Shown: piece after piece, positions 5,004-47,728 of the stretch | Layout of the letters: every line of letters begins with the position of its first letter | How positions within the stretch are numbered: position 1 is the stretch's first letter | Virus record (IMG/VR): IMGVR_UViG_3300020732_000008 | Span: 39,933-103,932 of that record | Reading direction: 5' to 3' (one strand) | From: a virus | DNA: 64,000 nt | Program-made: the position numbers and the translations under genes | Notes under the pieces: generated by a model | What the model saw: only the letters and a program-made list of their open reading frames with translations | The model's database searches: none | What the model was told of the DNA's origin: nothing

Positions 5004-5480
5004 TTAGAATGAGTAAAGTAGCTTGCCATTGATAGTAACCCCATCAAAACTGGTAAATAGAAGAGTAGGAGCACCGCTTCCAATGCTCGCCGGTGCTGAT
5101 CCACCATCCCACACAACGTTATTAAATGTAAGGGTGTACGATGTTGGAGCTACAGTGACTCTCCATACTGTTGGCTGGTACATGGTCACACCGTAGGCGT
5201 CTACATACGTACCAGGCATTCCCACAAAGTTAACCGTTAAGTTTGATGTTAAATTAAGCAAACTAATAAAAGCACCATCAGTAGGATTTATTGTAAGGGT
5301 AGAAGTTGTAGCAATTGCAGCCTTTTGCTTACCACCAAGAGTTGTAGCTACATTGTAATTTCCCCAACTTCCAGCGGCTGGACTGGTCAGGTTAAATACT
5401 TGAACACGAGAAAGGTGAGCACTATTCTGGACAATATCCTGGGACTGTCCAAGTACCTGTGGCACTGAGGTGACTGACAT
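5004..5480 (-). CDS. Tail-fibre-related protein
   Basis: VVWDGGSAP...FTSFDGVTING motif. Confidence 0.55.
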   Translation of the reverse strand: MSVTSVPQVLGQSQDIVQNSAHLSRVQVFNLTSPAAGSWGNYNVATTLGGKQKAAIATTSTLTINPTDGAFISLLNLTSNLTVNFVGMPGTYVDAYGVTMYQPTVWRVTVAPTSYTLTFNNVVWDGGSAPASIGSGAPTLLFTSFDGVTINGKLLYSF

Positions 5481-5767
5481 TACTTCCTCTTTCTAAACAA
5501 AGACTTACGCTGAGGTACTTCTTCTACTTCAATAACTTCTTCGGCTTCATCAAAGCCGGTACCGTTCCATAGTGTACGAGAGACACCCGTAAGGGTATCT
5601 GGATACCAAACACCGTTTTCAAATGTCCACCCTACCGTTGGGCGTGGTTCTGCATCTGTTACATCCACCTGAGTTAGGTGGGCTACATCTGGACCGAGAT
5701 CTTGACCGAGTGTGGCGACAACCAGGTGTTTAACCTGGTTGCCGTCCATTAGAGCTATATATGCCAT
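5480..5767 (-). CDS. Small fibre-associated hypothetical protein
   Basis: P-x-VGWTFENGVW motif, similar to 296-580. Confidence 0.6.
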   Translation of the reverse strand: MAYIALMDGNQVKHLVVATLGQDLGPDVAHLTQVDVTDAEPRPTVGWTFENGVWYPDTLTGVSRTLWNGTGFDEAEEVIEVEEVPQRKSLFRKRK

Positions 5768-5773
5768 CCTAAG

Positions 5774-5779
5774 AGTTTA
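5774..5779 (-). promoter_or_regulatory. -10 box TAAACT, 6 nt before the ATG (probable leaderless promoter)
   Basis: TAAACT-cttagg-ATG. Confidence 0.5.
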
Positions 5780-5781
5780 CC

Positions 5782-8700
5782 TTAGAATGTTTGCTTATCG
5801 AACCAACGAATGATCGCTAGACCGTCTGATCCATTACCACCGTTAGAGTTGTAACCGAGGTATGCAAGGCCTGACATATCGAGATCGACGATATCGCCGG
5901 CATCGAAGTAGTCACCTTCCCATGTTACGTCAAACAAGTAAGCGTTAGATGGTGCAGCTAGAGTTGTCCAGCCACCAACCTGTGTGTAGGTACCGTTAAC
6001 GCCGAGGTAGTTAGTTGTGTTAACTGCGGTGAAGACGATATCAACGAGAGGACGATCTTCACGAATAATCGTGTTGGTCTGATCCTTCCAACGGATTGTT
6101 GGACGTACACGCTTTGTTGTTCCTGAGAACACTGGGCTGTTGATCGTTGAAGTTGGAGACGAGGTCAAACGAGCTGCAAGCGTTGGGATGGTGATAACTG
6201 TACGAGGCAAGATCTGGAATGTCTGAGACATTGTTGTGACCTTGAAGTTACCGTCATCCTGTACTGTGATACGAAGACCGTTAGAACCTGAAACAATCGC
6301 TGCAGATGAGCTTGGCTCAATATCTGTGGCGTTATAAAGTGGGATCCACTTGTAGTACTCAGGTGAAGCGGCTTCGTATGAAACAGCGAGGTTTGCAGGG
6401 AAGTGCAAGATTGGCTGATCTGGAGCCTGACCAAAGTTGGTCGAACCTCCACCGCCACCGGCACCGGTGTTAGCAATAGCGTCGATACCACGGGCAAAGT
6501 AGTTACCCATAGCTGAACCCCAAGAGGTAATAGTTGACTGGGTTAGGTCGACGATGAAGTTACCGCCACCCTTACCGCCGCCAGCTACTCCACGACCTGG
6601 AACCATCTGTCCATTGAACTGCGCACCAGTAGGTGTTGTAAGGTTGGTAGCACCACCTTGGATGTTGGCGTTAGTACCTGATACAGACCAAGTAGACCAA
6701 CCAGCTCCACCGCCTCCGCCACCAAGGGCGACGCCGACAAGTGAACCAGAGTTAAGACCTGAGATAACGGTACCTTGTCCACCATCACCAGCGTAGCCAG
6801 GGATTACGGTGTTGTTGTTACCGGTATTCATAATGGCGAATCCGCCGTTGTTACCACGCTGAGGGAATGAAGGTTGAGTGTAAGCAGCGGTTGTCTGCCA
6901 TCCACCTGTCCAGTTCATTGTGGTTGAAGCTGATGTTGACTGCAAGAAGCTCTGACCATTCTGACCAGGTGTGAGAGATCCTCCACCACCGCCAGCAAGA
7001 GCAAGAGCTGCTGAAGTTGAGTTGTAAGCTGCGTGACCGCCGTTGTTAGCACCCTGAATACCAAACATCCAGTAGATGTTGTTAGAGTTGTAGGTACCTC
7101 CACCTCCGCCGCCTTCTGCTGCAAGAGTCCATCCGGAGATCAAACGGGAAGCACCAGTCTGACCTTCGTAGTAGATCGTTGCACCGTCAGGGCGCTTTGG
7201 AAGCGTTGCGGTTGCTGAAGCTTCAAGTACAGGGTAGAGCATGTTGTACTGAATGTTGTTCACAGTAGCTGACTGAGCACCGTTAAGTACGGAGAAACCT
7301 ACACGAGCGTAAGCAGCTGCGGCCACTGGCTGGTAACCGGATGTAGTTGCTACTGGAGCCACTGCACCGTTTACACCAACACGAGCACCGTAGTTAGCGG
7401 CTGGCATTTCAGTTGCGTTAGCAGCATATCCTGTGTAACCAAGGAACATGTTTGGACCAACAGAACGTGAAAGAACGTTGTAATCAGCATCAAGCCATTC
7501 AATAAATGCGTTGATTGGACGATACTGGTTAGCAAGACCAGAGCCATAAACCCACATAGAAGCTGAGTAAGTGGTACCTGCGGTAACACGTACTGGACGG
7601 TGAGCGGTTTCAATGTTGCCAGTCGTGGCTGTGTATGAGTTAAGAACCATAGAGGTTTCAAAGCCATAAACAGGAGGCTGCCATGTTGTTGGGGTTCCAC
7701 CAAGTTCAAGCTGAACGTTGTCGACCCAGAAGGTTGTGCTTGGCTGCTGGAACAAGATAACTGGATATACGAACTGAGGTGTTGAACCGTAGGCGTATGT
7801 TCCGTTTGAGAGTGTTGCAGCAATTGCTGGGGTTGTAAAGGTTGTTGATACACGACGCCATCCTGCAGGAATAAACTGCGATCCGGTTGGTGTACCAAAG
7901 GTGATCGATGTAGAGGCTGGAAGGGCTGCTGTAAGAGCAGTTCCGATTACGATCTGAGTTGAGTTAACGATAGAAGAAATCGCTACACCAGATGCAAGAC
8001 CAGTTACTGAAGAGGATACAGTCATACCAGCAATAAGGTTAGCTGTGCTTGTCAAGGTGATTGTTGTTGCACCCTGAGCGTTTGTTCCTGAAGAAGATGT
8101 GGTTACTGAAGCACCATATCCTGTAAGAGGAGCAGGCTGACCTTGACGTACGAAGAAGCCGTTTGCCTGACCAGCATCGATAGAAGAGGTAGTTCCTGAG
8201 GTTGTACCACCAAGGTAGTTAGCGTTAACTGCTGCGTTGTAAGAGTTACCAACAGAACGAAGCTGGAACAAAACCGGTGTAGTTGTTGTAACAGTGGCGT
8301 TTGAGTAGATGTACGCAGACAAGGTGTAGGTCTGACCTGGGATATAAGGGATACCTGTAGAACCGGTAGTTGTGACACCACCAGTTGAAACAGTTGTACC
8401 TGTAAAGGAGGTGAAGTTAACCCATGAAGGTGAGGCTGTAGAAACACCAGAACCGGTAACGACGTTAAGTGAGTTCTGCCCTACAGTTCCCGCATAAGAA
8501 GCAACAACTGGGGTAGAAGACATCGTTGTAGCAATTGTCTGGTTAAGGGTTACAACGTTACCTGAAATGTTGACGATGAAGGTACCAGTTGAGAGGTAAC
8601 CTGCAGCAACAAGGAACATGTCAGGCAAGAGGTTAGCTGTGCTAGCCAAGGTTAGCTGGTAAGAACCAGAGTTACCTGTACCTGTTGTTGTAAGAACCGA

Positions 8701-9645
8701 ACCAACCTGTTCCGCTAACTTAGCAGGAAGACCTGAGTTAGTTAAAGCGAAGGTAGCAAATGCTGTACCGTTTTGCTGAATCAAGCTGTTTGAGATAAGT
8801 GTTGTATCTTCAAGCTGAGCAAGACGAGGTGGGAGAAGGTTGTTAGAAAGGTTTGCACTCTGATTAGAAGAGTAGCTGTTGTTAGTAAATGTATTCGTAC
8901 CAGAAAGTGCGTCAATACCAACCTGGTTTGTCTGATAGAACAAGATCTGGCCCTGCTGGATGGTTGAATCACCGTTGTCGAAACGAACGATGCCTGAAAC
9001 AGCACCTGAGTTAGCCACTGTCAAGTTAACAATGTTACCGACTACAGAAGAAACCTGGGTGTTAGATCCAAGACCTGAGGTTGTTGTTGCAACTTCAGGA
9101 GAAGCAGTTGTAACTGCTGATCCACCGTAGACGTACTGTCCAACAACGATACCGTTAGCGTTAGGGAATACTTCGATAGAAGATTGTCCCGAGATACCTG
9201 TAGCACCACGGTAGAGAACTTCTGGATCCCAACCAAGAACGTTAAGGTCAAAGTCTGGGTTAGTGAGGTAGTTCCATACTGTTACAGAACCAAATGTGGT
9301 TGTACCACCGTTAGTTCCTGGAAGAGTAGAGGTTGTATCAGATGCGGCGGTAAGTGCGCCGAGGCCACCTTGTCCACCTGCACCGATTAGAATTGGGTAA
9401 GCAGTACCTGGTGTTACAGAAAGATTCTGAACTACGACGGCACCACCGGCGCCACCACCACCTGCTGAGTACTGTGATCCACCACCGCCACCGCCACCGG
9501 CACCAACAAGGATGACCTGTGCGGAGCTTACACCTGCTGGAGCTGTCCAGGTGCCACTAGTGGTAAAAACCTGCTCCTTGATATTGACGCGACCAGAGTT
9601 GTCGTTAGGAAAGACAACGAGATCTTTATATGAAGAAATTGCCAT
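5782..9645 (-). CDS. Large glycine-rich virion/fibre protein with inserted carbohydrate-binding-like modules
   Basis: FTTSGTWTAPAGV...VGAGGGGG start and GGNGSDGLAIIRW end; internal GQTYTLSAYI...FWVDNVQLELG CBM-like module. Confidence 0.75.
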   Translation of the reverse strand: MAISSYKDLVVFPNDNSGRVNIKEQVFTTSGTWTAPAGVSSAQVILVGAGGGGGGGSQYSAGGGGAGGAVVVQNLSVTPGTAYPILIGAGGQGGLGALTAASDTTSTLPGTNGGTTTFGSVTVWNYLTNPDFDLNVLGWDPEVLYRGATGISGQSSIEVFPNANGIVVGQYVYGGSAVTTASPEVATTTSGLGSNTQVSSVVGNIVNLTVANSGAVSGIVRFDNGDSTIQQGQILFYQTNQVGIDALSGTNTFTNNSYSSNQSANLSNNLLPPRLAQLEDTTLISNSLIQQNGTAFATFALTNSGLPAKLAEQVGSVLTTTGTGNSGSYQLTLASTANLLPDMFLVAAGYLSTGTFIVNISGNVVTLNQTIATTMSSTPVVASYAGTVGQNSLNVVTGSGVSTASPSWVNFTSFTGTTVSTGGVTTTGSTGIPYIPGQTYTLSAYIYSNATVTTTTPVLFQLRSVGNSYNAAVNANYLGGTTSGTTSSIDAGQANGFFVRQGQPAPLTGYGASVTTSSSGTNAQGATTITLTSTANLIAGMTVSSSVTGLASGVAISSIVNSTQIVIGTALTAALPASTSITFGTPTGSQFIPAGWRRVSTTFTTPAIAATLSNGTYAYGSTPQFVYPVILFQQPSTTFWVDNVQLELGGTPTTWQPPVYGFETSMVLNSYTATTGNIETAHRPVRVTAGTTYSASMWVYGSGLANQYRPINAFIEWLDADYNVLSRSVGPNMFLGYTGYAANATEMPAANYGARVGVNGAVAPVATTSGYQPVAAAAYARVGFSVLNGAQSATVNNIQYNMLYPVLEASATATLPKRPDGATIYYEGQTGASRLISGWTLAAEGGGGGGTYNSNNIYWMFGIQGANNGGHAAYNSTSAALALAGGGGGSLTPGQNGQSFLQSTSASTTMNWTGGWQTTAAYTQPSFPQRGNNGGFAIMNTGNNNTVIPGYAGDGGQGTVISGLNSGSLVGVALGGGGGGAGWSTWSVSGTNANIQGGATNLTTPTGAQFNGQMVPGRGVAGGGKGGGNFIVDLTQSTITSWGSAMGNYFARGIDAIANTGAGGGGGSTNFGQAPDQPILHFPANLAVSYEAASPEYYKWIPLYNATDIEPSSSAAIVSGSNGLRITVQDDGNFKVTTMSQTFQILPRTVITIPTLAARLTSSPTSTINSPVFSGTTKRVRPTIRWKDQTNTIIREDRPLVDIVFTAVNTTNYLGVNGTYTQVGGWTTLAAPSNAYLFDVTWEGDYFDAGDIVDLDMSGLAYLGYNSNGGNGSDGLAIIRWFDKQTF

Positions 9646-9677
9646 TAGTTAGCTACCTGTCCTTAGGTCCTGAGTTA

Positions 9678-9980
9678 TTACTGGTATACGCCAGAGATGA
9701 AGAAATCTACTGCTGATGCAGCATCTGCTGTTACTACTACCAAGTCGCTTGGGTTAGCAACAAGACGTGCATCAAAGTTAACTGTTCCGTTTGCTGGAAC
9801 TTGAAGATTTGTGCAGAAAGAATATCCGCCAACTGTAAGTGTTACGTAGCGGGTATTGGCTGTCTTGTTTGACAAGACAACGTTAGTGATGATTGCGGCT
9901 GTAGATGCTGTGATGCTTACGCCAGAGTCGGTAGTACCTGCGGTACCACGACGAATAAGTGTTACTGTAGGTGTAGCCAT
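9678..9980 (-). CDS. Small virion structural protein
   Basis: IITNVVLSN...VDFFISGV pattern; SD upstream. Confidence 0.6.
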   Translation of the reverse strand: MATPTVTLIRRGTAGTTDSGVSITASTAAIITNVVLSNKTANTRYVTLTVGGYSFCTNLQVPANGTVNFDARLVANPSDLVVVTADAASAVDFFISGVYQ

Positions 9981-10318
9981 TATGCTAGAACTCCCATGTA
10001 TGCGTAGGTTTGGATATTACTTGCTGTTGAAGATACCGCAGCAACCTGAGTGGCTCCTGCAGAGTTTACTGCTGATACTTGAGTAGTTCCAGCGGTGTTA
10101 ACGAGACCAACCTGAGTTGTTCCTGTTGTTGTAATAGTAGATACCTGGTTTGATGTGGCTGCCACAATGTCATTGACACCCAAAACAGAACCGAGGGTTA
10201 CTAAAGCGTTTGCGTAGTATGCGTAGTCCGATGCTGAGCTGACTCCACCAGCAAGGGTGGTTGTCATGTCCGCAGTTAGCGCATTGATCTGCGTTTGCAG
10301 TGTTGCGTAGCTTGTCAT
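9980..10318 (-). CDS. Structural hypothetical protein
   Basis: GTTQV/GATQV repeats; coupled to the next gene. Confidence 0.6.
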   Translation of the reverse strand: MTSYATLQTQINALTADMTTTLAGGVSSASDYAYYANALVTLGSVLGVNDIVAATSNQVSTITTTGTTQVGLVNTAGTTQVSAVNSAGATQVAAVSSTASNIQTYAYMGVLA

Positions 10319-36203: not shown

Positions 36204-36665
36204 ATGACAACAGCAACCGCAATCCTCGTTTCCCAAAGCAACCGTCAAGGTCGCAAGGGTTCAGAGCAGGCACTAGGTGAAATTGCCGAGGCTTATCGCT
36301 CTGAGCAGGTGTCTGTCCCTAGTCCGTATGACATTACAGGACTCCGTACAGTTACCAAGAAGGATAAGACGGTGATTTATTCACCTGCTCTCAAAATGGC
36401 ACACGCTGCTTATCTCCACGTTAATCTCGGATACCCTGTGGGTAAGGCTCTAAGCCTTGCCAATCAGTATTCAGACGTGGAAGGCACCGACATTTTGGTC
36501 ACCTTCTATGGTAAGGGTACTGACGCCAATGTGCGTGAGGCTATCAACTCTCACCACGCCGTCACTATCCAGAACCGCAAGGATACTGAGGTAGACCGTG
36601 CTTACGCTGCTCTCGAAGCGGCTAAGGCTCGTTTGGAAAAGTTGGGTGTGCTAGTGAGCGCATAA
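36204..36665 (+). CDS. Hypothetical protein, first gene of the plus-strand arm
   Basis: AAAGGA SD; 153 aa. Confidence 0.8.
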   Translation: MTTATAILVSQSNRQGRKGSEQALGEIAEAYRSEQVSVPSPYDITGLRTVTKKDKTVIYSPALKMAHAAYLHVNLGYPVGKALSLANQYSDVEGTDILVTFYGKGTDANVREAINSHHAVTIQNRKDTEVDRAYAALEAAKARLEKLGVLVSA

Positions 36666-36920
36666 AGGAGAATAGGGGGTAGAGAAGCCCCCTACACCTT
36701 CGCAAGCCCATCAGTAGAGATACTGGTGGGTTTGAGTGGGTGTTATGCACCCTGTCATTTGAGCGCAAAGAGGATAAATTGTTGTTCTGCCTTCCCTATG
36801 TGGTGGCTCAGAGCGGTGGTCAATAGACCTACCCTCTGGGCCACTACTTTTATGCCCTCACACCTGTGTGGCTGTATAACCAGGTCTAGAGGGGGTGGGG
36901 CTCACTCTTATCAGGTATTT

Positions 36921-37071
36921 AGTGAAAGATAGATAGGTACTGAACACCTCGTTATCGGACTGGCTTAATGCATCTCGAGGCGATGTTCTATTCCTGTAGG
37001 TATAACCTATAGATAGGGCTGTAAACGCACTTTCCGTATAACCGCTATTAGGTATCTATCTATCTCTCACT
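36921..37071 (+). ncRNA. Candidate structured ncRNA domain closed by a 20-bp stem
   Basis: AGTGAAAGATAGATAGGTAC / GTATCTATCTATCTCTCACT (19 of 20 paired) with internal hairpins. Confidence 0.6.
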
Positions 37072-37095
37072 CTCTATCTTATTGAGAGTTATCGG

Positions 37096-37115
37096 TACCC
37101 CCGATATTTTTACCC
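37096..37115 (+). promoter_or_regulatory. 20-bp repeated motif, copy 2 (TACCCCCGATATTTTTACCC)
   Basis: Directly upstream of the RBS for the 37130 gene. Confidence 0.55.
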
Positions 37116-37596: not shown

Positions 37597-37691
37597 GCAT
37601 TTTAGACCCCATGCAATCGGGCCTACCCATCACCTTGATGTGGCTAGGCCTTTCCCTATGTATTGGCTATTTGCTCATAGGTAAGAAGTAA
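37593..37691 (+). CDS. Small membrane peptide (32 aa)
   Basis: Read manually; ATGA coupling; single hydrophobic segment followed by KK. Confidence 0.55.
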   Translation: MSILDPMQSGLPITLMWLGLSLCIGYLLIGKK

Positions 37692-37786: not shown

Positions 37787-37948
37787 ATGAGAAATGGAAC
37801 ACTTTCACCAACAGAAAGTACAAGTTGGGAACCTGTCTATGGAAATTACAAGACAAGTGACCAGTACTGTCCACACTGCACCTCAGGGTGTAACTCGTGT
37901 GGTTACGGTAAAGACAAAACTTGTAATTGCTGCGAGGTCTCAAAATGA
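37787..37948 (+). CDS. Small Cys-rich protein
   Basis: GGAGG SD; CPHC..GCNSC...CNCC. Confidence 0.65.
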   Translation: MRNGTLSPTESTSWEPVYGNYKTSDQYCPHCTSGCNSCGYGKDKTCNCCEVSK

Positions 37949-38157
37949 TGTGGTACCTCAAGGCTTTGATCCATCGCTATTACATGGGCTATTGGCCAAA
38001 GAAGCCAGTTTCCATTAAAAAGGCGATTAGACGAGCTGAAAAGGGATTAGTGATGTTAGTTGATGAAATGAATATGACTTCATCAATGATGAAGAACTAC
38101 ATTGAGCCGGATATGTTGGCTCAAATTGATAGAACGATTGAAAAGATTCTTGGATGA
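37945..38157 (+). CDS. Hypothetical protein
   Basis: ATGA coupling. Confidence 0.6.
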   Translation: MMWYLKALIHRYYMGYWPKKPVSIKKAIRRAEKGLVMLVDEMNMTSSMMKNYIEPDMLAQIDRTIEKILG

Positions 38158-38224
38158 GTAAGGCAGCCAATAAATCCCTCGGATTTGTTGGTTGCATTAT
38201 CTATCCAAAAGATAGATAAAAAGG

Positions 38225-38358
38225 GGGAACAACACAGGACTGTGGACGCTAGGCGTATTTATACGCATAGGCTAGGCCATTGGAACTCGAAGGAATGTGC
38301 ATTAAAAGCTAGAGGAGCCGATGGTGACCCGAGCCGCCCCCTTCCCTGTGTTATTCTT
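38225..38358 (+). ncRNA. Candidate ncRNA domain
   Basis: GGGAA.AACACAGG / CCTGTGTT.TTCTT closing stem. Confidence 0.5.
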
Positions 38359-38363
38359 AACAG

Positions 38364-38496
38364 GAGAACAGCGAGAGACTATACACAGCAAGGCCCGGCA
38401 TCCTCCCCGTAAGTATTAACCGACCACTTAGTGGAACGAAAGAACACGGTCGCATGCCCCCCCTTAGCCAGTGTATCTTCCACCCTCGCTGTTCTC
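38364..38496 (+). ncRNA. Candidate rod-like ncRNA with C-rich unpaired tracts
   Basis: Perfect 12-bp GAGAACAGCGAG/CTCGCTGTTCTC, extended by ATACAC/GTGTAT, AAGG/CCTT and GGCAT/ATGCC. Confidence 0.65.
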
Positions 38497-38501
38497 TTTT
38501 T

Positions 38502-38808
38502 ATTTGACATGATGGAAGGCAGATAATTACGACGACTGCCTGTAAAGTGCACAGCCTTTCTATGTTAGTACCCAGTGATATGGCGAATCATAAGATTGCT
38601 GCTAAATACACGCTTTGTTCTTGTAAACGTCCTGTGAATAAAAGTTATGGAGGATCCATAATATAAGGCAACGCATGCCGTATATTCCCGGAGCGACGCA
38701 GTGAGCATGTACTGTTTACAAATATCACGACAAAGCTAAAGGTATGGATAACGTGGTCCTCACGTGCAATATGTCCTCCGTAATTATCTGTCTCCCACTA
38801 TGTCAAAT
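38502..38808 (+). ncRNA. Candidate ~300-nt multibranched ncRNA
   Basis: 30-bp closing stem (28 paired) plus nested GCTTTGT/ACAAAGC, TTGTAAAC/GTTTACAA and several hairpins. Confidence 0.7.
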
Positions 38809-38830
38809 GACATAGTTAAAGGAGGAGAAG

Positions 38831-46908: not shown

Positions 46909-47437
46909 CGTAGCTGTAGAAGCCGAGAGTAAGGAAGAGGCCTTTAAAAAGGTACAGCGCTTCCTATTAGAAGAAAACAATGCACCTTGGTCTGATTGGC
47001 ATGTTGTAGGTGGTGGACGTTGGAGCAACTCCCATTATGAGGATAGCTCTGAAAACGTGCTAGGCTACAAGGACGCTGACTTTAAGAAGTCATTCCAAGA
47101 TAGTTTGACAAATCGTTTAAACGAGTTAGAAAGGATCATGAAGGATATACAACCTCAAAAGATTCTTATTAACGGTAAAAGCTATTTGTCAAAGATGAAG
47201 AAGATAGCTCAATCTCAAGCTCCTTGGGTACCAATGGATCCAAGCGCTAGCCCATTCGTATTTGATAGGCTAATGTGGAGACTAGAGCAAATGAGCAAGA
47301 TCCTCAACAATGAGTGGACATCTGACAGCTATTTCTATGATATAGAAACCTGGACAGCTGACGCATCATCATTCTTAGATCGAGTATCTAAGAACCCAGA
47401 TAAACAATGGTTAGTTCCTGTGGACTTTCACTGCTAA
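46892..47437 (+). CDS. Hypothetical phage protein
   Basis: DWHVVGGGRWS and WLVPVDFHC motifs of a recurrent phage family. Confidence 0.75.
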   Translation: MHCLHNVAVEAESKEEAFKKVQRFLLEENNAPWSDWHVVGGGRWSNSHYEDSSENVLGYKDADFKKSFQDSLTNRLNELERIMKDIQPQKILINGKSYLSKMKKIAQSQAPWVPMDPSASPFVFDRLMWRLEQMSKILNNEWTSDSYFYDIETWTADASSFLDRVSKNPDKQWLVPVDFHC

Positions 47438-47461
47438 CCAAAACCCCAATCGGAGGCAACA

Positions 47462-47728
47462 ATGGCAACAAAGCGTCAAGCGATTATCTGGAAGGTAGTT
47501 CTAACCAAGAACACCAATCCAGGTGGTGCATGGTTGGCACAAGCCACATCAAGCACTATCGAAGATGGACAAACAGGCGAATACTTTGAGGCATTCTCTA
47601 ATGCATCAGCTGCAAAGCGGTGGGTTAAAGCTCAAACAGGTCGCAAAACAATCTCGTGGGTCGAGTCAGGTGAAGATGCTAAAGGTAAGCCAACAGCATT
47701 TAACGCTGGCTATGAAGTAAAGGTTTAA
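47462..47728 (+). CDS. Hypothetical protein
   Basis: GGAGG SD. Confidence 0.7.
   Translation: MATKRQAIIWKVVLTKNTNPGGAWLAQATSSTIEDGQTGEYFEAFSNASAAKRWVKAQTGRKTISWVESGEDAKGKPTAFNAGYEVKV

Follow-up and report, generated by a model that had tools for sequence, protein, structure and literature searches.

Within a 673-nt gene-free gap in the early region of a phage genome, a short hairpin (hairpin 2) and the multibranched, stem-closed domain that follows it (domain 1) together belong to a small and new family of non-coding phage RNAs. Our analysis supports a reading of the whole gap as a series of + strand RNA folds in tandem, each closed by its own stem. Long gaps in phage early operons, which are usually annotated gene by gene, are ignored; the one described here harbors a non-coding RNA element under stricter conservation than the neighboring proteins.

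Genome context of the gap

The window (i.e., the whole 64,000-nt stretch of DNA analyzed here) covers the right-hand end, 64 kb in length, of an IMG/VR virus record of 103,932 bp that is rated complete. Terminase, portal, and major head protein are encoded on the − strand. Identity of the head protein amounts to 73% with the Streptomyces phages LuckySocke, Alone3, and BRock, and to 83–93% with many uncultured viral contigs. The nearest cellular relatives of a whiB gene (41016–41318) are found in Actinomycetota, including Acidimicrobiia and lake MAGs. Based on this phage WhiB and on the capsid likeness to Streptomyces phages, the host presumably belongs to the phylum Actinomycetota. The + strand early arm starts at ~35 kb and consists of small, mostly orphan genes, several of which are preceded by strong, purine-rich ribosome-binding sites. 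Within this arm, the gap separates a 76-aa ORF from a 190-aa ORF, and neither of these flanking proteins had a homolog in the closest complete kin. An identical 190-aa protein is encoded on 7 contigs on record (6 besides the present phage). The 190-aa ORF also includes an in-frame internal ribosome-binding site and ATG at ~39142–39157, which is 91% identical to the site preceding the next gene (39726–39747), and its homologs cover just its Cys-rich C-terminal part; two genes may have been read here as a single ORF, or the ORF may represent a fusion.

Five RNA modules with closing helices

The original prediction had placed a tandem chain of stem-closed RNA domains between these two genes, and all of its helices are present in the sequence. 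Overall, the gap is composed of five back-to-back RNA modules joined by linkers of 1–5 nt, and the features referred to below are:

37927–38157, + strand: 76-aa ORF, the upstream flank of the gap.
38163–38195, + strand: hairpin 1, with a 15-bp stem, a 3-nt loop, and two G-U pairs, starting 6 nt past the stop of the 76-aa ORF.
38197–38219, + strand: hairpin 2, with a 9-bp stem, found before domain 1 in all three clades described below.
38225–38358, + strand: domain 1, 134 nt, multibranched, closed by helix P1.
38225–38238 with 38345–38358, + strand: helix P1 of domain 1, 14 positions with one C-A mismatch.
38276–38328, + strand: core hairpin of domain 1, consisting of an 8-bp helix, an apical element, and then UGAC (38325–38328).
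38363–38497, + strand: domain 2, rod-like, 135 nt, -47.1 kcal/mol.
38363–38375 with 38485–38497, + strand: closing helix of domain 2, 13 bp.
38497–38505, + strand: U-rich run (T5 A T3), read from the sequence, directly 3' of the closing helix of domain 2.
38502–38808, + strand: domain 3, 307 nt, multibranched.
38502–38531 with 38779–38808, + strand: closing helix of domain 3, 30 positions, 87% complementary.
~38797–38816, + strand: alternative small hairpin, overlapping the 3' side of the helix that closes domain 3.
38818–38833, + strand: Shine-Dalgarno sequence and ATG of the 190-aa ORF (38831–39403), the downstream flank of the gap.

We evaluated folding energies relative to dinucleotide shuffles. 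The whole 673 nt reached -218 kcal/mol, corresponding to z = -6.8 on the + strand versus z = -6.3 on the − strand. A strand bias was clearest for hairpins 1 and 2 taken together (z = -8.8 on + versus -4.9 on −; -30.1 versus -21.8 kcal/mol, i.e., 8 kcal/mol better on +), which bears out the earlier proposal that the G-U pairs of hairpin 1 favor the + strand: both turn into A-C mismatches on the − strand. Domain 2 scored z = -5.5 on + versus -4.5 on −, domain 3 scored z = -4.4 on +, and domain 1 alone was at just z = -0.6. When simple shuffles were used instead, 25 other 673-nt segments of the window averaged z = -1.9 (sd 1.9), and the gap itself (z = -5.4) compared with values of -4 to -6 in other early-arm segments, coding ones included. 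Energy alone thus fails to single out this stretch, because structure-rich controls from the early arm score similarly; it is singled out by the comparative evidence on hairpin 2 and domain 1. A scan with sliding 150-nt windows, which cut through long-range helices, revealed nothing special across the stretch. Elsewhere in the DNA analyzed, coding segments at 43200–47600 (a VWA-domain gene and its neighbors) have z-scores of -4 to -6, as low as those of non-coding islands, and late-gene segments range from near 0 to -2.

Hairpin 2 and domain 1 form a new RNA family

Hairpin 2 with domain 1 is the only part of the gap for which relatives were found. A 99-kb viral contig (L101, equivalent to L102; genome G021), reached via a distant homolog of the 190-aa protein, includes a 56-nt piece of domain 1 at 89% identity, and exact scans with this piece led to a second complete phage (L103; genome G022) and to the metagenome contigs L104–L107. 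Overall, six further copies of the core are available (L101, L103, L104, L105, L106, and L107), from two other complete phages and four contigs, and the seven sequences form three clades: the window (G000), L101 with L105, and L103 with L104, L106, and L107.

At the center of domain 1 lies a purine-rich apical element of 36 nt (38283–38318), which is invariant in all copies save for one A/T position (35/36). This element is enclosed by the 8-bp core helix (38276–38283 with 38318–38325), and the UGAC right after the helix is invariant across copies as well. Among six distinct sequences, the core helix displayed a standard pair in all 66 cells (100%), 5 of its 8 pairs were altered on both sides, and its covariation score was reached by 0 of 500 shuffles, in a sample that is small (7 sequences from 3 clades) and whose pair counts are few and partly inherited. 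As a control, sliding the pairing partner by 1–3 columns reduced pairing to 26–62%. The same six sequences include G-U pairs at 4 of the 8 positions and no A-C cell, which favors the + strand. The apical element is co-oriented with the flanking genes in the window and in L101, and also in L103, where orientation was judged from flanking reading frames. In the aligned sequences, the pairing and covariation of the core helix show that hairpin 2 with domain 1 is under RNA-level selection.

The surrounding architecture is shared too. Helix P1 measures 13–15 bp in each clade, with sequences that are unrelated between the three clades and pairing that is nonetheless kept, and a hairpin of 7–9 bp sits in the same place in the G021 and G022 lineages, before the A-rich linker that precedes P1. 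One stem pair of hairpin 2 is A-U in the window and G-C in these two lineages. Between close kin, hairpin 2 and domain 1 are 90–100% identical, compared to 75–82% DNA identity for the flanking genes, and across the clades bearing the 35/36 invariant element the ATPase protein is just ~55% identical. Two other candidate features were dropped on inspection by eye, namely a pseudoknot of the pyrimidine spacer with the apical element, which was inconsistent across clades, and a start codon after the core helix, whose position co-varies with its pairing partner and reads CUG in one lineage.

To describe the distribution of the family, we used a covariance model of the core (R1), which scored 93 bits for the window copy and 93–102 bits for the other copies. 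R1 identified one copy each in G000, G021, and G022, and nothing in 21 other related records (G001–G020 and G023) or in 72 further early arms fetched via the conserved ATPase; this outcome indicates that the family is real, rare, and single-copy. Scans of IMG/VR with the left and right halves of the core yielded no new clade, and an exact 21-mer from the core had 0 matches in one genome per GTDB species. By blastn, the stretch had no match among 50,697 cultured phage records or 20 records of capsid relatives.

Comparison to Rfam 15 with cmscan gave no match for the 673-nt stretch at gathering threshold, and with permissive filters and E up to 10 there were only chance-level matches and none to 6C, 6S, ROOL, GOLLD, intron, or riboswitch families. 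The homologous islands of L104, L107, and L101 returned weak chance-level matches and an unrelated tRNA only. A canonical tRNA gene (69 bits) is located at L107:2760–2833, ~1.2 kb downstream of the domain 1 array. The window copy combines all the features by which we define the family (the 36-nt element, the co-varying 8-bp helix, UGAC, a closing helix of 13–15 bp, and the preceding hairpin), and the family is new relative to Rfam 15, though not necessarily relative to the large catalogue of candidate viral structured RNAs (PMC10690425).

Other modules and comparable arrays in related phages

The original prediction had suggested following individual domains across related phages. This comparison provided relatives for hairpin 2 with domain 1; hairpin 1, domain 2, and domain 3 had no detectable homolog in related records, and the case for these three modules is for this reason built on folding energy and on analogy with kin. 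A terminator scan listed hairpin 1 as terminator-like with a weak tail, and this hairpin likely marks a 3' end or serves as a weak terminator. In domain 2, the helix that precedes the U-run encloses 109 nt, a loop size that is atypical for a terminator and far beyond the limit of the scan, in which it is not listed; the U-run is a possible intrinsic termination point. The closing helix of domain 3 is similar in its inner 13 bp to the helix that closes a 260-nt domain in L101 and L105, with one compensatory U-A to G-C change between domain 3 and L101, and no alignment was obtained between these large domains outside the closing helices.

Comparable stem-closed chains were observed at matching places of the early arm in G001, G021, G022, and L146, with differences in module content between related phages. 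The chain of G021 is composed of a hairpin, domain 1, and the 260-nt domain, whose 24-bp closing helix includes two G-U pairs and no mismatch, while that of G022 reads as a 227-nt domain, a hairpin, domain 1, and a 105-nt domain. L146, the closest kin by ATPase (68%), has a non-homologous structured gap of 440 nt with the same neighboring genes, and G001 has a 450-nt island homologous to the first island of the window (36660–37100). Across the large domains of these kin, closing helices are 88–100% identical and interiors are 69–70% identical, below gene level. Helices are thus kept while interiors drift, which identifies the closing helices as the constrained part, and RNA-level selection is evident at these helices as well. 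One domain shared by L103 and L106 is 99% identical inside, and its closing helix displays two double compensatory changes.

Search for partners and targets

The three complete carriers of domain 1 have in common a set of genes that G001 and G002 lack, consisting largely of a tail-fibre block, a RuvC-like resolvase, and unannotated ORFs, and no gene of this set carries an RNA-related annotation. The tail-fibre block (5004–10318), which includes a 1287-aa glycine-rich-domain protein and its neighbors, is also found in the other two complete carriers, G021 and G022, and this hints at a shared host. In a duplex scan with the apical element, the best values were -29 to -30 kcal/mol in G000, G021, and G022, versus -31 to -32 kcal/mol in control genomes that lack the element. 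A search with a 23-mer at 3 mismatches, sense and antisense, returned one match in 401 sampled Actinomycetota genomes, which is about the chance expectation. Since both target and look-alike searches were blank, antisense action on a conserved target is not supported, and the simplest reading of an invariant, purine-rich apical element would be that it has a protein ligand.

Proposed role and alternative explanations

We consider that these data are best explained, with moderate confidence, by self-folding modules of an early transcript whose closing stems provide insulation or processing, and among which domain 1 displays a sequence-specific docking element. The gap would be transcribed along with the + strand early genes, and its RNA would fold co-transcriptionally into self-contained modules, each one independently because its two ends pair. 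The closing helices (13–30 bp) would then insulate neighboring modules and ribosome-binding sites from mutual interference, and they are also plausible substrates for a double-strand-specific RNase of the RNase III type, which would release modules and set mRNA ends. We infer that the modules are probably cut out or insulated at these long closing stems. Along the chain, the upstream message may be protected or terminated by hairpin 1, a transcript may stop at the U-run past domain 2, and domain 3 may form part of the leader that precedes the 190-aa gene. The apical element of domain 1 is most likely a sequence-specific docking site, for which a protein seems a likelier partner than an antisense target.

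A bolder version of this explanation, which we put forward tentatively and consider unlikely, is that domain 1 acts in trans, with its invariant apical element capturing a specific host or phage protein at an early stage of infection, and that the array provides a plug-in platform for the exchange of RNA effectors. Possible targets would include, for instance, the machinery of translation, RNA decay, or defence, and the restriction of the element to three phages with a common tail-fibre block would then reflect adaptation to one host. Should the modules indeed be released, and should a host factor be bound by domain 1, the result would be a new RNA-based tool of host takeover or counter-defence in phages of abundant freshwater Actinomycetota, and the stem-closed layout would offer phages a general means of carrying and exchanging RNA parts. 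Otherwise, the gap still adds a clean, new family to those of Rfam and provides a concrete set of substrates for actinobacterial RNase III.

The strongest alternative, which we see as possible although somewhat unlikely, is a purely cis-acting punctuation, in which the modules only terminate, stabilize, or separate early messages, as in the early region of T7-type phages. They would then act as protective hairpins at 3' ends, as RNase III sites, as a terminator behind domain 2, and as a leader that controls the 190-aa gene. Several features of the chain would fit such a role, including a terminator-like hairpin 1 right behind a stop codon, the U-run after domain 2, and a domain 3 helix whose 3' strand overlaps an alternative hairpin beside a ribosome-binding site. 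The large domains of kin, in which interiors drift faster than genes around conserved closing helices, and the variation in module content at the same place among related phages are likewise consistent with it. However, punctuation leaves unexplained why 35 of 36 nt are invariant in phages whose core proteins are ~55% identical, and why this element is more conserved than the flanking genes, as well as the 99% identical domain interior of L103 and L106. Its variant as a leader is further weakened by the gene downstream of domain 1, which differs between phages, so that domain 1 is not the leader of one gene.

The original prediction favored an array of small RNAs similar to actinobacterial 6C RNA, with C-rich loops that pair with G-rich targets. 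Such targets of the exposed loops could be, e.g., Shine-Dalgarno sequences; we regard this reading as improbable. The three C-rich tracts on which it was based are real: those of domain 2 lie opposite each other in predicted internal loops, one of them contains the anti-Shine-Dalgarno core CCUCC, and the purine-rich ribosome-binding sites of several early genes could serve as partners. The presumed Actinomycetota host and the C-rich single-stranded tracts would also recall 6C RNA (RF01066). Yet the suggested cmscan check against the 6C and 6S models found no match on either strand, even at E up to 10, and 6C is made of two short hairpins, unlike the multibranched or rod-like domains of 134–307 nt seen here. 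In the sole module with relatives, moreover, the C tract is not conserved: the corresponding spacer of domain 1 is pyrimidine-rich in L101 and L105 and non-C-rich in L103, L104, and L106, and the conserved part is the purine-rich apical element rather than a C-rich loop. For domain 2, there are no relatives in which conservation of the tracts could show. A C-rich + strand is equally a G-rich − strand, and this composition by itself does not tell the strands apart. An exact scan for homologs, with the C-rich tract of domain 1 as a probe, gave chance matches only.

We find it very improbable that the gap functions at the DNA level, be it as an origin of replication or a packaging site, or else as an invertible segment or a decayed miniature transposon between inverted repeats. 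Such an element could account for a − strand that folds about equally well overall, for the equal numbers of A-C mismatches and G-U pairs in the domain 3 helix, for the recurrence of domain-closing helices of similar sequence (38518/38785 and 40823/40986), and for a sporadic presence among kin. It would not account for compensatory changes with G-U intermediates on just one of the strands, or for the clear + strand preference of hairpins 1 and 2; in addition, no iterons, direct-repeat family, or target duplication were seen, and the family is present as a single copy per genome whose orientation always follows the genes.

Finally, a protein-coding origin of the signal, through translation of ORF 38185–38412 (75 aa) or of a mini-ORF, can be set aside as having next to no chance of being correct. 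The original prediction had named the reality of this ORF as an alternative that would count against it, and the frame of this ORF is indeed open across the core in all six distinct sequences, spanning 43–113 codons from stop to stop among the copies; the apical element also contains a conserved ATG, four codons, and TAG (a 5-codon mini-ORF). However, peptide conservation in this frame is limited to the ~13 residues that the invariant RNA element specifies, with unrelated peptides on either side among relatives, and changes beside the core compensate each other as base pairs. An in-frame start codon upstream is missing from one clade, neither this ORF nor the small ORFs on the − strand of the gap matched a PHROG family, and the mini-ORF lacks spacing between a purine-rich tract and its ATG. 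From the sequences compared, ORF 38185–38412 is not supported as a gene.

Comparison with known systems

RNase III stems are known from the stalks that flank 16S and 23S rRNA in rrn operons, from the early intergenic sites of T7, and from dicF-dicB of prophage Qin. The modules described here would be similar to these in that they fold separately within one polycistronic transcript, each bracketed by a long-range helix of its own flanks, and, as for the processed sites of T7, they sit between early phage genes. In both cases, helices are kept by compensatory change and interiors may drift. RNase III substrates typically extend over about two helical turns, however, and three of the five stems here are shorter (13–15 bp): relative to a norm of ~20 bp or more, the closing helix of domain 3 (30 positions, 87% complementary) and that of L101 (24 bp) compare with 15 for hairpin 1, 14 for P1, and 13 for domain 2. 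The enclosed modules also differ from rrn units in being neither rRNA nor mRNA, in that one of them has its own strongly conserved apical element, and in that cleavage is a prediction here.

Species 1 and 2 RNAs of T4 are stable small RNAs co-transcribed with phage tRNAs. Like these, the modules are non-coding, structured, phage-encoded, and would be embedded in an early polycistronic transcript; unlike them, they include no tRNA-like fold within 38158–38830, and there is no sequence relation. In terms of genome organization, a parallel is found in the PeSL cassettes of T4-type phages, where promoter-early and stem-loop motifs mediate modular shuffling (PMC2839356, PMC4122927). As for these cassettes, intergenic structured elements are here located in a hyperplastic early region whose gene content is shuffled between close relatives, and module order differs between G000, G021, and G022. 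The elements described here are nevertheless much larger and mostly unique in sequence, and the repeated promoter-like motif of PeSL has no counterpart: promoter-like sites in the stretch are rarer than in shuffles, and none recurs as a motif beside the stems.

Additional structured elements in the early arm

The first non-coding island of the early arm (36660–37100) has z = -7.2. It includes a stem-closed domain at ~36872–37079 with sequence homologs in G001, G021, G022, and metagenome contigs, and these homologs make the domain a second conserved RNA family, with a wider distribution than that of domain 1. Three exact copies of a 12-nt motif, CYTTCCCTRTGT, are found on the + strand within 1.6 kb (36790–36801, 37650–37661, and 38340–38351), and once in the early arm of the relative G001 (L098:9414–9425); each copy either leads into a downstream hairpin, at its 5' strand, or makes up the 3' side of a closing helix. 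Closing helices of the form GGCAG(A/G)...CUG(U/C)C were observed at 38518–38792 and 40821–40996, at L101:6866–7125, and on the − strand of L103 at ~1918–1693 and 1521–1417. The domains that share these helices are otherwise unrelated, and this closing motif may represent a shared recognition or recombination feature.
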